64,000 nucleotides of DNA from a virus. A model generated the notes under the pieces. That model was not told the DNA's origin, ran no database searches, and saw only the letters and a list, made by a program, of their open reading frames with translations. A program made the translations under genes and the position numbers. The stretch spans positions 11,766 to 75,765 of the IMG/VR virus record IMGVR_UViG_3300048583_000222. One strand, 5' to 3'. Positions 11,675 through 57,785 of the stretch are shown here, in pieces. Every line of letters starts with the position of its first letter. Within the stretch, counting starts at the first letter, position 1.

Positions 11675-14600
11675 TTATCCGCATTTAAGGAATGGATTGT
11701 GTCCATCAGCCAGATATGGAATATTTGCTTTGATCATTTCTCTGTAGACCTGATCAGGCGTTTTCCCATTCCGTACCTCAGACGGTGTGAAGGTATATAA
11801 ATCCTTCAATATCTTCATGGACAAAGGCTGCATATCTGCACTAGGCACGATGGAAGTTACGGTATGCCCTACAAGATCAATATTGGAGTTCAACTCCATG
11901 CCCAGCATCTCATTGGCAGCGTCCAGATCATCGGCACTGAACTCCTCCGAATCGGAGGTAGTGGGGGTGGTTACCTCAGGTATAAGGGTAGCCGTGACTG
12001 TCTGATCTTCCTTGAGTATAACAGTAGCGTCATCGAAGAAAGTGATCATCGGATTGGCAGCGTACACATACTTACCGGCAAGTTGGTTGCGCCCATCTAC
12101 GTATGTGGTGGCGTGAGATTTCACGTAAGCATTGTAGTTAGCATGCTTGTGCACCTTCCACCCACTGGTCTGGTATAGTACTTCCTGGAACTTCTGGTTG
12201 TTATTGATACCCATTACCTCATCCTTGGTGTAGTTCACGTTCCGGTACCGGGTAGCCAGCCCTGCTCTTAAAGCTTCTACGAATTCAGGAGATAGCTCCT
12301 TGTTGCGCAGGTTGGCTACAATGGGCTGCTGTCCTGAATTGGCAAAGCCGATCATGACTGTGGCCAGTCCAGTGGACGGGTCGGTGACATTAAACAGGAA
12401 GTTATTGTTATCCGCCTCTGGGTTATGTGCCGTGTGGGAGGCGTCAAAAGACTGCAGGTAAGTGTACTGCTGGGTGATGAACCGACGCAGGTGCGCAGCA
12501 TTGCCAAAATCGTAACCCGTACGGGCGAAGACATCTTTCAACTCTGCCTGTACATCCGCATCCTTGCTCTTCAGGTACAGCCAGATGGCCCGCTCTACAG
12601 TACGCAGGTCGAGCTCATTCTCCAGCTTGTCCATGTACAATGGAGATACGGTGACAGACCCATTGGCCATGGGGAGCACTACTACAGGGGCATTGTGCCA
12701 TCTGTCCAGTTCGTCTATCGTGTTGTTCACCTCGATTGGGTTGTTCCGAGCTGTGTTGACCACGGTCTGGTTGATCACCGCCAGAGAGAGTGTGGTATCG
12801 GGGAGCATGTCTGTTGCCGGCATGCGGGTGTACTTGGGCTTCTCTCCCGTGTTGTCCACGTGGAGGATTACCCTACCTGGGCCCTTGGCTTCTATGGTGA
12901 GTTGTACAGTACCGGCTTCAGAGATCAGCCTGCGCAGCTTACTCAAGCGCTCTTGTTGTATGGCAAGGTTGTCGATGATTGTACCGTCCTCCAGTTCGAT
13001 GGTCTCTACGATGTTGCGCATGCGCTCGGGACCGCCTGTTCCCGGGAATTGCTCCATCATCCAGTCCCCTGTAGCCAGATATCCGATTACGGTACCCCGC
13101 TCATCTACCAGACGTATGGGTACATTCATATGGTCAGTCACCTTACCATCAGGGTCCGTGAAATCGGAGAAGCTGATGTCCTGCAACTTGTTGGCATGCC
13201 CATGTACCTTACCCTTGCCCTGATAGTTCTTGTCCAGTTCCGCGGTGACCTTAGTACCAGGCTTCAGCTGGGTGGGATCGAGGATAGCTGGATTGAGATT
13301 TGGGTTGAGTCCAACACCTGCTATGCGGTAGTTCCCCTTATCATCGGTGTAGTCCACCGGGTTCAGGGTAGTGGTGTTCACTTTCAGCATACTTACTGCC
13401 TTGGCTTCGTAGTGGGACTTATCCTTACCAACCACAACATCCGGAGCATTGTCCGTCTCGGGTTGTTCAGGGTCTGTCACTACAGGGCCATGGGTAACCT
13501 CAGTCTCGGTCTTCTCAGGTTTCCCTGTCTTGGTACCCTCATCTGTATGGGTCTCCCCGGGAGTTTCCTGATCATCCTGCACGGTAGGCAGACTCTTGAT
13601 GTACTTGCGCAGGGCAGTCAGTGTGTCCATCACCTCATCAGAGAATATAAAGAACAATCCATCATCCAGTGCCTGCTGTGTTTCTGGCAAGTTGCGGAAG
13701 TCTATGTCGGGCAGATTCGGGTCCCGCTTCAGTGCTTCTTCGAATGCGGCAAAGGCAGAATGGGCCTCCGCAGGAATATTCTCCTCCAGTACTTTCAGGT
13801 ACTCAGCCTGCTCTTTGATCAGTACATCGATCTCGTCTTCCACCGGTGCTTCTGGAATAGGTACCGGAGGTGGCGTAACAGTCTGACTGGCAGCCAGTGC
13901 TTTCTCCACATCTGACTTTACAATCTGCTTTCCGTTACGACCAGTAGGTACAATGGTGTTGATGTCCAGTCCATTGAGCTCCGCCAGGGCACGTGCTGCA
14001 GGTGTGATACTCACCCCAGTTTTCGCAGCAGGTTTTCTGGTCTTAGGAGCCGGTGCCGTCCCTGGCGGTGGTACTGTACTTGTAGCTGCTTGTGCCGCCT
14101 GAGCTGCTTGCTCATTGGTTTCCTGCTGTGCGAGTATTTCAGCAGAGTTAAGCTTGAGGGCATCGTGCAACGCAAGTTCTTTTTGTTGTAGGTCATTGAG
14201 TGCAGATTTAAGGTTACTCAAATCGTACTTGTGCTTGAGCATCTTGGTCTTCCAGTTCAGGTTCCACATGGAATGTTCTGTCAGCTTCAATGCATTGATC
14301 TTCTGTATCACAGCAGTTATCCTGTCTTTGATTTGTACGATCTCCTTTTGGGTGGCGTCGAGTTCAACCTCGAGTTTCTGCTTGTGTTTATCCAGACTGG
14401 TCTTGTTGCGCTCTACATGAGCAGCTGCTGCATTGCGGGTAACCTGTGCCTGTAAAGCCACTTTACGATCTTCCTCAATCATCTTCTTACGCTGCTCGTC
14501 AATGGGCCCTTTGATCTTCTTCAGCAGCTTCTTCACGTTGTTGGAATCACTCATGATGTCGTTCAGGTTGGCCTGATTAGCCTGAATCCTTGAACGAAGT

Positions 14601-30684: not shown

Positions 30685-30692
30685 CAAATGTA
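30685..30692 (-). promoter_or_regulatory. Bacteroidota sigma-A -7 element (TACATTTG)
   Basis: Matches TAnnTTTG; lies just downstream of the MCP terminator and 31 nt upstream of the ATG at 30653; no -33 TTTG seen. Confidence 0.45.
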
Positions 30693-45720: not shown

Positions 45721-45728
45721 TAACTTTG
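45721..45728 (+). promoter_or_regulatory. Bacteroidota -7 promoter element (TAACTTTG)
   Basis: Exact TAnnTTTG 19 nt upstream of the ATG at 45748. Confidence 0.55.
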
Positions 45729-53641: not shown

Positions 53642-54064
53642 ATGGTAAGCGTAAAAGAGCTTTCCGAAGGACGGATACTGATCATGGGAGGGTCACGTTA
53701 CGAGTACCCTGATCCGGTTATGGATTACTGTCCTATAGCAGGCAAACCTACAAAGGAACGCAGCCTGGAGATGGTACTGATGCCGGGCAAGACCGTGGAG
53801 GACCTTAGGGTAATCCTACGTAAGTATCCGCAAATCAGGATTCAGCACATCATTGCCCACGAGCCCTACATCACTGAACGTGAACAGCAGCTGATCTTCG
53901 GTCATATCAAGACCATACAGGAGGTAGCTGCCTGGAAACGCATCAAGGTGGAGGGTGTGGATTATATCGACGAGTTCGGCTTTCATGTCTACGTACGGAG
54001 CGAACTTGATTTCTTTGGCAACATGTCGGACGTAGATCTCCGGTATGACAACGAACCTGTATGA
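53642..54064 (+). CDS. Hypothetical protein
   Basis: Internal ATG of ORF 53603..54064; ATGA overlap with polA. Confidence 0.55.
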   Translation: MVSVKELSEGRILIMGGSRYEYPDPVMDYCPIAGKPTKERSLEMVLMPGKTVEDLRVILRKYPQIRIQHIIAHEPYITEREQQLIFGHIKTIQEVAAWKRIKVEGVDYIDEFGFHVYVRSELDFFGNMSDVDLRYDNEPV

Positions 54065-55365
54065 TTTACGTAGTAGCACGTCAGTGTAATAACGCAACTT
54101 TCGACCAGTTCATGTACTGGCAGAAAAACCAGAATCGCTTCATGGTGGACAGTGAGACTACGGTACATGAGCAGTGGTGCGAACGTCAGCTGGTGCTCAT
54201 CCAGTTCGGTAACGGTACAGATGAGTGGCTGCTGCAGTGGAGCTTCCTCACAGACATGCAGAAGGCACGGGTGCGCGGTATCCTGTTTGACGACAGGCTC
54301 AAAGTATTGCACAATGCCTATTTTGATTGTATCGTGTTCCGCTTTGCCGGTATGGTCATGCGCAACGTGTACTGTACTATGGTAGCGGAAATGGGACTGA
54401 ACTGTGGCAAGCTTAACCGGGAAGACGAAGAGGAGGAGGATGTGGAAGGTGCTGAGTTGGGGTTCTATTCCCTGGCTGGGCTATTGGACCGCAGACTCAA
54501 TCTTCGTATCTCCAAGGAAGCGCAGACCAGATTCGGGGACGACATCCTCACTCCTGAGAAAGTAGAGTATGCTGCTATCGATGTACGGCACCTGTTCAAG
54601 ATCCAGGAACTGCAGCGTCTCGACCTCCATGAAACAGATCTGGAGATGACCTGTGCACTGGACTGTGCAGCCATTCCGGGACTGGCGGAGATGACCTACA
54701 ATGGAATGCCGCTGGATACTGTAGCATGGCGTGCCAACATTGACCTGGCCTGGCCGGTAGTACAGCACTCTATTGCCCAGCTCGAGCAACGGGTGAAAGC
54801 AGAGCCCAAGCTACTGGCTAAGGTCATTGAGATGCAGCGCTACAGTGATGAGGATAAGATCGTACTGAACACCAACTCGTTTAACCACCTGCGTACCATC
54901 TTTGCGCATGTATTCCCTGAAGTAGGCGGTGCCACACGTGCGATCGTTCGTGGGTTCATGAAACATCATGACATTCAGGATCCTGAAATACGCACCGTGT
55001 TCCAGCACTTCGAAGCAGGGGATACGGAACCTCTGAAGATGTACCTGTACAATCACCACCGGGATTTCCTGATCAGTAATGACTGGCTCATCCCGGCAGG
55101 AGCCATCACCATCAACTGGAATTCCCAGCAACAAGTACTGGCTCTGCTGCAGGTACTGGACAAGAAGCTTCAAGCCTTAGATAAACAGTCCATGAGTAAG
55201 TTCTCACATCCTATAGGTCTTGACCTTAAGGATTATAAAGATTCCATGAAACTGGTTACTACCTACGGCGAGAAGTTCATTGAACAGCACGTGGAAAGCG
55301 ATGGCATGGTACGAACCACGTTCAACGTGATCGTATCTACCGGTCGACTCAGCAGTCGCAAGCCT
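54061..55365 (+). CDS. polA: Family A DNA polymerase, exon 1 (3'-5' exonuclease and thumb; 435 codons)
   Basis: FMVDSET (ExoI), LHNAYFD (ExoII), YAAID (ExoIII); ends at STGRLSSRKP, and exon 2 resumes NMQNIP. Confidence 0.92.
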
Positions 55366-55547
55366 AAATATATTGGGCAGCGTAGCCGTGAGGCACGTAA
55401 AAAATATCGGGTGAACTCAGGGAAAGCTGAAATGCCAATCCTGAGCCAAGCTGTAGAAGGACTAGTGAATCTACAGAAGGTGCAGAGACTAGCGTGTGAG
55501 ACCAACAATAATCACGCAAATAGCGCCCGATTACTTGAAAGGAATGT

Positions 55548-55578
55548 TTTGAATATACGGTCATTAGCCGTATGTTTG
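55548..55578 (+). promoter_or_regulatory. Intron-internal Bacteroidota promoter (-33 TTTG, 19-nt spacer, -7 TATGTTTG)
   Basis: Full consensus with correct spacing; ATG of the endonuclease 4 nt after the -7 box. Confidence 0.7.
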
Positions 55579-55582
55579 TAGT

Positions 55583-56323
55583 ATGAAAAGATGGAACATA
55601 AACATCAGCAAAGAAACGATTGAGGAAATGCAGCGAGCAGGCTATACACAGCTAGAAATGGCATCCAAATTAGGGGTATCAGTGTCTGTGGTGGAACGTC
55701 GGATCAAGAAATTCAACCTACAGGGGTACAGTCCTGTCAGGTATAATCTTATGACCCCGAATAACCCTGTATTTTGCTATTTACTCGGCTGGTTTGCAGC
55801 TGATGGGTACTTGACTAAGCACAACAGGGTTAGTCTTCGTACGTATGAGCACGATGTCGTTGACAAACTGAGTAGTTACTTTGGTACACGCAAATATGAA
55901 ATACGTAGAGAAGGTAAGTGTAGTACACACGAACTGTATTTTGCACAAGCTCCTGCAATTTTCAAAGAAATCTGTGGACAAGGTAAAACCAGAGATTGTC
56001 AAGTACCCGCTGTTCAGTATTTTGATATGTTTCTTAGAGGAGTTATTGAAGGTGATGGTACAATAAGACCCTTACAACACAAAGGAGGAGGGCTCGTTCG
56101 TATCTTCACTTGTTCAGAAAACTTCGCTTTAGAACTACAAGCACGATGTCCTTATCCGTTACGTCTTCGCAAAGATCGTATGGGATGGGAACTGAGTTCA
56201 AACTCCACACAGTTCTTGTCTTATGTGTACACAAATCATCTTGATTTTGTGTGTTCGCGTAAGTTCAAACGTGTGCAACCTCGCATTCAAGTAAATGATA
56301 TAGTCCAACCTAATGGAAAATGA
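55583..56323 (+). CDS. Intron-encoded LAGLIDADG homing endonuclease with N-terminal HTH
   Basis: YLLGWFAADGYL and FLRGVIEGDGTI double motif; HTH TQLEMASKLGVSVSVVERRI. Confidence 0.9.
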   Translation: MKRWNINISKETIEEMQRAGYTQLEMASKLGVSVSVVERRIKKFNLQGYSPVRYNLMTPNNPVFCYLLGWFAADGYLTKHNRVSLRTYEHDVVDKLSSYFGTRKYEIRREGKCSTHELYFAQAPAIFKEICGQGKTRDCQVPAVQYFDMFLRGVIEGDGTIRPLQHKGGGLVRIFTCSENFALELQARCPYPLRLRKDRMGWELSSNSTQFLSYVYTNHLDFVCSRKFKRVQPRIQVNDIVQPNGK

Positions 56324-56339
56324 ACCATTAGATAAGTTG

Positions 56340-56663
56340 AATATGCAGAACATTCCGGCTAAGGAAGCAGTAGGTAATCGTTACCGCAACTGTTTTGTAG
56401 CAGAGGATGGCTGGGTGTATGTGGACAGTGACTATGCTTCCCAGGAGCTGGTGGTGATTGCCTTCATATCGGGAGATCCGGTATGGATGGATGCACTGCA
56501 AAGAGGTAAGGACCTGCATAGTGTATGTGCAGAGGTAGTGTACAAGGATCTCTGGAAGCGTTCTGCTGATAGTGATTGTGCGTACTACCATGACGGACAG
56601 AAGAAGTGTAAGTGCAAAGCCCATAAAAAGCTGAGGGATGGTATCAAAACCATCAACTTCGGT
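56340..56663 (+). CDS. polA: Family A DNA polymerase, exon 2 (motif A to motif B; 108 codons)
   Basis: NMQNIP, DSDYASQELVVIA (motif A), DLHS and KTINFG. Confidence 0.93.
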
Positions 56664-56673
56664 TAAATTAAAG

Positions 56674-56681
56674 TATCTTTG
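56674..56681 (+). promoter_or_regulatory. Intron-internal -7 promoter element (TATCTTTG) in the P1 loop
   Basis: Exact TAnnTTTG; ATG 4 nt downstream, the same geometry as intron 1. Confidence 0.6.
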
Positions 56682-56685
56682 TAGA

Positions 56686-57204
56686 ATGAAATCACAAAGT
56701 AGCCAGGCCGAAGTAAAACTTTCCAAATTCGGGGAACTCTCAGCAAGTAACGTTGGAGACAATCCCGAGCCAAGCACTGTAGAGAAGTCTGCAGAGGCGT
56801 GTGTAGAGACTAGACGGAAAGTGTGTATTAAATGTGGGGGAGACATACCCTCAAGGAAGTACAGCAACGCAAAATACTGTAGTGATAAATGCAGAAGTGC
56901 ATTCATATCACTCAGACATGCACATCGTACCGGCCGCATCAAGAATCCTAATGTAGGTTCTGGAGGAGCCCAGCAAGGACAAGCCAATCATCAGTACAAG
57001 ACTGGTATAGGCATGTACACTAAGCTGGGATTCGCTGCGCACGGTAAGATTTGCAACAGGTGCGGAGCTACAGCTACCTTGATCCATCACAAGGATCACA
57101 ACCGGTTGAACAATCAGGTTGATAATCTTGAGCCGTTGTGCAAACGGTGCCACCAAGAACATCACTGTGTTCGTGATCTGGAAGGCAAATACACAAAGGG
57201 ATAG
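56686..57204 (+). CDS. Intron-encoded zinc-finger/HNH homing endonuclease
   Basis: CIKC..AKYCSDKC zinc finger and CNRC..IHHKDHNRLNNQVDNLEPLCKRCH HNH motif; start could alternatively be GTG at 56821. Confidence 0.88.
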   Translation: MKSQSSQAEVKLSKFGELSASNVGDNPEPSTVEKSAEACVETRRKVCIKCGGDIPSRKYSNAKYCSDKCRSAFISLRHAHRTGRIKNPNVGSGGAQQGQANHQYKTGIGMYTKLGFAAHGKICNRCGATATLIHHKDHNRLNNQVDNLEPLCKRCHQEHHCVRDLEGKYTKG

Positions 57205-57236
57205 TCCACGCTGTCAGGAAACTGACAGAAGCCGTG

Positions 57237-57785
57237 TTGGCATACGGCATGAGCAAGTACAAGCTTTCTGCGAGTCTGTCCATTTCAGTACCCGATGCAG
57301 ACAAGCTGATCACCGAGTACTTCACCCGGTTCCCTAAGATCAAGAAAGCACTGACGTACATGGGCCTGTTCGGTGTACGTAAAGGCTACATTCAGACACT
57401 TGCCCCGTTCTTTCGCAAGCGGTGGTTCCCGTACTGGAAATTCGCACGTCGTAACATCGACGCACATATCCAGGGAGTCCAGTACGACAGTACACTGGGC
57501 AGTATAGAACGGGCAAGTAAGAACATGCCAGTCCAAGGCAGTTCAGCGGACATGACCAAAGTTGCTATCTGGATGATGCATGAGTACATTCACCTGAATG
57601 CACTATCGCACAAAGTCCGGTTGGTAATGCAGGTACATGACCAGCTAACCACGAGGGCACGGAATGATTATGCAGAGCAATGGAAGGAAACCATGCACCA
57701 GCTCATGCTGGATGCTGCAAAGTTCACCATCACCAATGGCCTGTTAGGGGCTGAGACAAACATCACAAACGTATGGACCAAGTAA
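57237..57785 (+). CDS. polA: Family A DNA polymerase, exon 3 (spliced product about 725 aa)
   Basis: LAYGMS, YFTRFP, GYIQTL..RKRW, ERASKNMPVQGSSADMTK and MQVHDQL (motif C). Confidence 0.93.
   Translation: MAYGMSKYKLSASLSISVPDADKLITEYFTRFPKIKKALTYMGLFGVRKGYIQTLAPFFRKRWFPYWKFARRNIDAHIQGVQYDSTLGSIERASKNMPVQGSSADMTKVAIWMMHEYIHLNALSHKVRLVMQVHDQLTTRARNDYAEQWKETMHQLMLDAAKFTITNGLLGAETNITNVWTK

Follow-up and report, generated by a model that had tools for sequence, protein, structure and literature searches.

The 64,000-nucleotide (nt) window analysed here, positions 11,766 to 75,765 of virus record IMGVR_UViG_3300048583_000222, contains a family A DNA polymerase gene (polA) on the + strand that is divided into three exons by two group I introns, each harboring an open reading frame (ORF) for a homing endonuclease. 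Both endonuclease genes probably carry a promoter of their own, of the host type, from which leaderless and splice-incompetent messenger RNAs (mRNAs) would start at the ATG, and hairpins would silence the same start on the polymerase precursor; the probability of this reading was put at about 0.6. The endonucleases are probably made from such messages of their own because related phages keep the layout of a promoter box followed by four nt and the ATG. The phage itself appears to represent an environmental lineage of crAss-like phages, with a host presumably belonging to the Bacteroidota.

According to the proposed mechanism, host RNA polymerase would begin transcription on the A of each endonuclease ATG or no more than one base away from it. 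The resulting short leaderless mRNA would lack the 5' part of the ribozyme and could not splice, and its 5'-terminal AUG would be usable without a Shine-Dalgarno (SD) sequence. On the polymerase precursor the same DNA would give rise to hairpins, directly upstream of the AUG in intron 1 and with the AUG in the loop inside P1 in intron 2. These would probably keep ribosomes off and thereby protect ribozyme folding, which should matter most in intron 2 because its ORF runs through the core. The motifs themselves, their retention in relatives, the covariation of the hairpins and a general box-to-ATG pattern in SD-poor phages are shown; what we infer from them is that the promoters are active, where exactly transcription starts, that translation is leaderless and that the hairpins are repressive.

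The split polymerase gene and the boxes before its endonuclease ORFs

The -7 element of Bacteroidota promoters spans -12 to -5 and is separated from the start site by 4-5 nt (PMC6847099; PMC9723704). A refined version, TAHHTTTG, excludes G from -10 and -9 (Baez et al. 2019, PMC6847099), and numerous genuine Bacteroidota promoters have a weak -33 element or lack it altogether (PMC6847099, PMC7366714). Both endonuclease ORFs started with ATG, displayed no SD-like motif upstream and were preceded by a putative -7 box fitting TAnnTTTG, TATGTTTG in intron 1 and TATCTTTG in intron 2 (Table 1). The 15-mers reaching from box to ATG were read directly at 55571-55585 and 56674-56688, where the preliminary description had placed them, and the -33 TTTG that it had reported for intron 1 at a 19-nt spacer was present at 55548-55551, as were its hairpin arms ATACGG (55555-55560) and CCGTAT (55568-55573). 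Its statement that the two promoters are identical went too far: the 15-mers were alike at 13 out of 15 positions, with a match running on into ATGAAA, and intron 2 was devoid of a -33 element. Nor were the introns otherwise dissimilar, as it had held, since their ribozyme cores aligned well.

Shared with Bacteroidota primary-sigma promoters are the same -7 box, the 19-20 nt spacer of intron 1 and the 4-nt distance from box to start. Compared with them, intron 2 lacks the -33 element and intron 1 displays a G at -9. With respect to the refined element, the intron 2 box (TATC) fitted and the intron 1 box (TATG) departed from it at that single position; the same box as in intron 1 also preceded one other leaderless-type gene start outside the seed set of the 18-mer scan described below.

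The combination TAnnTTTG-N4-ATG occurred exactly twice in the whole 95.7-kb genome, both strands considered; each occurrence was at the ATG of an intron ORF, and the rough chance of any two out of 255 ORFs showing it was ~7e-4. TAnnTTTG as such was not enriched (14 per strand in 95.7 kb, against ~23 expected at equal base frequencies). Leaderless or very short-leader mRNAs, transposases included, account for 3.7-5.5% in Bacteroides and Flavobacterium (PMC9723704, PMC7366714). Whereas such a minority of host mRNAs uses this mode, in the window the geometry was encountered at both mobile genes and at no other phage gene.

Joining exon 1 to exon 2 restored the motif STGRLSS..PNMQNIP, which is unbroken in a 94-kb relative (L001), and restored the polymerase profile at positions 126/127. 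Group I introns were judged by the gathering score of Rfam model RF00028 (50 bits), which intron 2 passed and intron 1 did not reach; the latter has a 746-nt P8 loop, occupied by the ORF, that the model is unable to span. The sequence of intron 1 nevertheless displayed the U-G pair of the 5' splice site, the terminal G, P7/P7' and P8, an inverted repeat formed by 55534-55540 with 56287-56293. Its ribozyme core lies 5' of the ORF, and P7' and P9 are located inside or past the 3' end of the LAGLIDADG ORF. P1 of intron 2, in which exon positions 56656-56663 pair with the internal guide at 56707-56714, was recovered by folding.

The LAGLIDADG ORF matched PF14528 with 36 bits (cut-off 22.5), HTH_24 with an E of 3.7e-4 and a PHROG (endonuclease). 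The second ORF matched a PHROG of HNH endonucleases (E 2.8e-13) and, at 20.4 bits, remained below the cut-off of PF13392 in Pfam (24.8); invariant HH, N and H columns were present in the alignment of its homologues. It opens 22 nt past the splice site and its frame is open through P3-P8, the first ~45 codons being ribozyme core. Two other starts were considered for this ORF and rejected. The upstream in-frame ATG at 56638 was found only in the window and in one relative carrying both introns (L208), whereas the ATG at 56686 is conserved; as to a main start at GTG 56821, in the P8 strand, more than 100 homologues open from the P1 loop and display indels in threes. The ATG at 56638-56640 sits in exon 2, off the polA frame, and leads ORF finders to start the HNH frame 48 nt early.

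Table 1. Features of the polA locus, in window coordinates (aa, amino acids; HTH, helix-turn-helix)
Feature	Position	Strand	Remarks
polA exon 1	54061..55365	+	3'-5' exonuclease domain PF01612, 59 bits; start of polymerase domain, PF00476 positions 29-126; last base U (55365)
Group I intron 1, 974 nt	55366..56339	+	RF00028 43.3 bits, E 1.8e-9; boundaries from sequence; terminal G 56339
Segment complementary to exon 2 start	55541..55556	+	contains the -33 TTTG; reverse complement of 56341-56356
Putative -33 element TTTG, intron 1	55548..55551	+	19-nt spacer (55552-55570) to -7 box
Predicted promoter-spacer hairpin, intron 1	55555..55573	+	predicted in every homologue; 3' arm holds TA and n positions of the box
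Putative -7 box TATGTTTG, intron 1	55571..55578	+	fits TAnnTTTG; followed by TAGT, then ATG 55583-55585
LAGLIDADG homing endonuclease ORF, 246 aa, N-terminal HTH	55583..56323	+	in intron 1 P8 loop; A 55583 is the predicted transcription start
polA exon 2	56340..56663	+	PF00476 profile positions 127-196
Group I intron 2, 573 nt	56664..57236	+	RF00028 57.0 bits, model positions 1-253; terminal G 57236
Putative -7 box TATCTTTG, intron 2	56674..56681	+	in P1 loop; fits TAnnTTTG; followed by TAGA, then ATG 56686-56688
Predicted P1-loop hairpin, intron 2	56677..56699	+	56677-56682 with 56694-56699; 5' arm is the TTTG of the box; AUG in loop
HNH endonuclease ORF, 172 aa	56686..57204	+	from intron 2 P1 loop; A 56686 is the predicted transcription start
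polA exon 3	57237..57785	+	PF00476 100 bits, profile positions 218-379

Relatives of the two introns and their hairpins

Homologues of the LAGLIDADG protein formed a small group of seven distinct sequences (49-57% protein identity), all of which were fetched. The ORF was located inside the polA gene in all seven, and in all seven the sequence upstream of its start could be aligned. Together with the window they make a family of eight distinct sequences, and all eight displayed a -33 TTTG (TTG in L216), a 19-20 nt spacer, the box, four nt and the ATG. The box was a perfect TAnnTTTG in six out of eight and carried one mismatch each in L210 (where it ends in A) and L303 (A at -6), and both the n positions and the sequence of the 4-nt gap varied among members. 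In L208 each of the two introns displayed a perfect box 4 nt before the ATG. At L213 1926 and in L303 (~60 nt before the called start) gene callers had chosen a downstream ATG, the conserved box-proximal ATG lying upstream in the same frame. Scanning with a core motif for further relatives of intron 1 yielded just one ORF-less intron and one chance match.

The HNH ORF belonged to a much larger group, with 117 homologues besides the protein of the window, nearly all of full length. Their first ~45 residues, which correspond to the guide sequence, P4-P6 and P7 of the ribozyme core, were conserved in the alignment, and length changes in the variable P6 loop amounted to whole codons; for both reasons the frame through the ribozyme core was considered real. 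In every case the start codon fell 3' of the splice site and 5' of the guide sequence. The DNA of 18 distinct members was retrieved, and these could be divided into a class with a long P1 loop (41-82 nt, 11 members) and one with a short loop (14-29 nt, seven members). Ten of the 11 long-loop members displayed TAnnTTTG before the in-frame start, at a gap of 4 nt (n=5) or 3 nt (n=5), and the eleventh, L134, a TAnnTTGY-like variant. The six defining box positions were the best-conserved columns of the loop, whose flanks had drifted, and G was never found at the n positions.

Among the short-loop members, the HNH ATG of L137, L140, L222, L223 and L224 lay at intron nt 3. The same five ATGs are also situated 4 nt past the exon codons I-N-F-G, which form a near-box (TTCG for TTTG). 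At the 5' splice site of L222 the exon codons ATT AAC TTT GGA form a perfect TAACTTTG, with exactly 4 nt between it and the ATG of the intron ORF; its exon does not end in the usual GGT, and the splice junction is tentative. A further variant of intron 2 was found at L298 380-1620, where insertion of an additional endonuclease gene (LAGLIDADG_2, 198 aa) after P7 has divided the HNH frame, leaving an HNH ORF of 136 aa besides a 39-codon ribozyme-encoded stub; the P1-loop box of this variant ends in A, not G.

The preliminary description had proposed a search of other Bacteroidota phage introns, and in these the -7 box, the 4-nt (sometimes 3-nt) gap and the -33 element of intron 1 indeed proved conserved. 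Its idea of a convergent solution fits as well: the ORFs represent two distinct endonuclease families and are placed in separate intron loops, so that the arrangement would have arisen at least twice.

Covarying pairing in the RNA overlapped both boxes. Covariation of the intron 1 hairpin reached 0.321, against 0.167 in shuffles (2/500 of which reached the observed value), and one of its pairs occurred as four pair types. A second hairpin with the intron 1 AUG in its loop was rejected, as it is not kept in relatives. The P1-loop hairpin of intron 2 appeared in the minimum-free-energy folds of nine out of 11 long-loop members with differing stem sequences, while T-12 and A-11 of the box lie outside its stem and yet are invariant. 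In the predicted fold of the precursor from the window, P1 encloses the intron 2 hairpin; in folds of the predicted leaderless RNAs of both introns, the 5' AUG is unpaired. The segment complementary to the start of exon 2 matched over 16 nt (14/16 identical, 88%; 15/16 RNA pairs with one G-U), a score reached by 5/500 shuffles. Relatives retained this complementarity in part, and one change among them may be compensatory. A long-range pairing within the RNA, an operator comparable to that of I-TevI (see below) and a scar of ORF invasion are all conceivable.

The box and ATG as a gene start in other phages

IMG/VR was scanned with the 18-mer common to both introns, its two variable positions left free, and at least 118 stretches were matched. 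A composition-matched permuted 18-mer served as control and gave 46 stretches with 30 distinct hits; statistics for the real 18-mer refer to 109 distinct hits among the matches listed. The ATG opened an ORF of at least 60 codons in 82% of the real hits versus 27% of the control, it was the first ATG of its frame in 59% versus 7%, and TTTG was found 19-21 nt upstream in 48% versus 3% (real versus permuted, Fisher p = 1.7e-7). The -33 TTTG was outside the query, and the histogram of spacers among these matches still peaked at 19-20 nt.

Loci recovered with the 18-mer (L305-L422, again among the matches listed) had ~32% GC and an SD-like motif at 8.6% of their ORFs. Their 1235 other ORFs displayed a peak of the nearest box at 4 nt before the ATG (n=26, versus eight ORFs at 5 nt and two at 3 nt), followed by a broad second hump at 15-30 nt that corresponds to leadered genes. 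Altogether, 34 out of 1235 non-seed ORFs had a box 4-5 nt before the ATG. One locus, L338, carried the 18-mer three times within 6 kb. Nucleotide similarity gave no host for the 18-mer contigs, and their SD poverty and the promoter motifs themselves suggest that they are Bacteroidota phages. The 18-mer and its -33 element thus accompany gene starts outside introns, which indicates that this sequence by itself constitutes a module of promoter and start; the motif of the window appears to be a standard, if minority, gene-start module of this world of hosts and phages.

In the cultured Bacteroides phage crAss001, several genes of the structural module, portal and tailspike among them, were preceded by the same box at a distance of 19-35 nt. 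Out of 125 unrelated phage intron cores, gathered by a shared 15-nt core motif, three displayed the box at most 12 nt from a long ORF, a neutral result given that these phages are probably mostly non-Bacteroidota. The SD-poor subset of this survey was uninformative apart from L059, an SD-poor 80-kb sequence in which a 269-aa intron ORF, 162 nt past the core motif, is preceded by TATCTTTG. A perfect 8-bp hairpin has the box as its 5' arm in this case, and 17 nt separate box and ATG, which looks like a short-leader version of the design.

A single contig of 95.7 kb, which has a GC content of 49% and giant ORFs (4951 and 1746 aa), contains the window. With an SD-like motif ahead of just 8% of its ORFs, the genome is SD-poor. 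A nucleotide search of the locus against named phages gave no match, and protein searches against them gave only crAss-like relatives, with a distant match to cr85_1 (27%). Scans for E. coli-type promoters and terminators yielded nothing above shuffles, as expected for such a host type. Single-protein searches of IMG/VR with the locus produced no match for the LAGLIDADG query and one relative for the polA exon 3 query. Only two other intergenic boxes were found in the window, at 30685-30692 (- strand, 31 nt before the ATG of a 314-aa ORF) and 45721-45728 (+ strand, 19 nt before that of a 126-aa ORF), both candidates for ordinary leadered promoters of the host type. Several other intergenic gaps of the window displayed a GC-rich hairpin followed by a TTATTTT-like run.

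Alternative readings and comparison with known introns

The comparative evidence favours real host sigma-A promoters before both endonuclease genes. A number of findings weigh against this reading. The G at -9 of the intron 1 box is almost never seen in F. johnsoniae promoters (PMC6847099), and intron 2 contained no TTTG 17-23 nt upstream of its box. The phage scarcely uses the box elsewhere, and it was hardly ever found before its genes. One-base defects affected near-invariant box positions in L210, L303 and L298, five relatives of intron 2 displayed a 3-nt gap that ordinary genes rarely use, and all seven short-loop members were devoid of a box inside the intron. Since the TA and n positions of the intron 1 box lie in a covarying stem and its -33 element in the segment complementary to exon 2, constraint on the RNA could explain part of the conservation. 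Imperfect boxes, 3-nt gaps and boxless relatives with the ATG at intron nt 3 together make translation from the precursor or from spliced-out RNA possible.

Promoter and boxless forms might be reconciled in a broader and rather tentative proposal, which we hold to be possible at best: intron endonucleases in SD-less Bacteroidota hosts would generally obtain a 5'-terminal AUG, by either of two interchangeable routes. A promoter start on the ATG may serve the two introns of the window and their long-P1-loop relatives. Splicing itself may create the 5' end in short-loop members, where the excised intron (the added G, two bases and the AUG) would be nearly leaderless. If true, this would explain why the HNH start is always in the P1 loop and why the ORF runs through the core, as the RNA being translated would never be the RNA that still has to splice.

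It is unlikely, though the main alternative, that the elements act at the level of RNA only, the bases being kept for the hairpins of the P8 and P1 loops (for folding, P1 docking, processing or translational control), with translation from the precursor or excised intron and an incidental likeness to promoters. Covariation in intron 1 is indeed stronger than conservation of the box (the stem is intact in 8/8 members and the box imperfect in 2/8), hairpins with differing stems recur in the P1 loops of 9/11 long-loop introns, the -33 region is complementary to exon 2, short-loop relatives do without any box, and A is frequent at -3, as expected for leadered initiation in Bacteroidota. Constraint on the RNA does not, however, account for T-12 and A-11 of intron 2, which are invariant although unpaired, nor for the fixed 4-nt distance to the ATG, which has no structural reason in intron 1; and in many phage contigs ordinary genes outside introns begin at the 18-mer, accompanied by a -33 element at 19-20 nt.

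Less probable still is that the promoters are active and that their product is not strictly leaderless, with a leader of 1-5 nt or a start cutting into the ATG, or that they serve other ends, such as extra transcription of the downstream polA exons and replication genes, or autoregulation of the endonuclease. The published gap from box to start is 4 or 5 nt rather than a single value (PMC6847099), and 3-nt gaps occurred in relatives, but the sharp peak at 4 nt before true ORF starts favours a start at the A. Transcripts from the box sites would be without the upstream exons and could not yield polymerase. For autoregulation there is a precedent in I-TevI (PMC2988022), and here a look-alike of the exon 2 start overlaps the -33 element. 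Chance, by which two AT-rich stretches before two ATGs happen to fit a loose consensus with only six fixed bases (28 genome copies, not enriched near other genes), is very improbable in view of the N4-ATG geometry confined to the two intron ORFs, its retention across diverged homologues (49-79% protein identity) of two unrelated ORF families and the outcome of the permuted-control scan.

Leaderless, promoter-driven expression of the endonucleases can be compared with other intron systems. To our knowledge, the expression of an intron endonuclease without harm to its host ribozyme has been worked out essentially only for phage T4, and Bacteroidota and their phages, the abundant crAss-like ones included, use, as far as we know, neither sigma-70 promoters nor SD sites; the T4 solution can therefore not simply be copied. 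In the td, nrdD and nrdB introns of T4 (encoding I-TevI, I-TevII as well as I-TevIII, respectively) the endonuclease ORF has a promoter inside the intron (PMC2988022). A hairpin present only on read-through RNA limits translation there and shields splicing from ribosomes, the promoter being located within the hairpin such that its own transcript is free of it, and I-TevI represses its intron promoter through a look-alike of the homing site (PMC2988022). A promoter in the intron and a hairpin at the ORF start, shown by experiment in T4, would thus be shared by the introns of the window, where we infer them. T4 relies on phage-specific middle and late promoters and on leadered mRNAs whose SD is hidden in a stem, in contrast to the host sigma-A type box, the lack of an SD and the predicted zero leader of the window. 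Moreover, the ORF of intron 2 crosses the whole core, whereas the T4 ORFs involve only its 3' edge.

I-HmuI of phage SPO1 and its relatives are HNH endonucleases encoded in a group I intron that splits the family A polymerase gene of the phage. Intron ORFs of the SPO1 type are located in a peripheral loop, are SD-led and belong to phages of Firmicutes hosts. Unlike in the I-HmuI type, the HNH ORF of the window has its start in the P1 loop and continues across P3-P8. Numerous group I introns whose ORFs encode endonucleases were reported from core genes of crAss-like phages (Yutin et al. 2021, PMC7886860); the portions of that paper covered here neither discuss expression of the intron ORFs nor describe polA introns of the present environmental lineage. 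Leaderless initiation of hidden HNH genes in mycobacteriophages was speculated upon in one paper, and a literature search found no paper on leaderless gene starts in Bacteroidota phages or their introns.

An internal promoter combined with a hairpin is thus already known for intron endonucleases from T4. What appears to be new is the putative host sigma-A box, the predicted zero-length leader in an SD-less system, the conservation of the arrangement across crAss-like polA introns and the ORF that crosses the core. Gene callers mis-start ORFs of this kind, as in L213, L303 and the second ORF of the window, and box-N4-ATG could be used for annotating leaderless genes in Bacteroidota phages. On these data, host promoter and ATG may form a portable module that would be usable in any Bacteroidota phage, whatever its transcription programme, and that would help endonuclease genes to move between phages.

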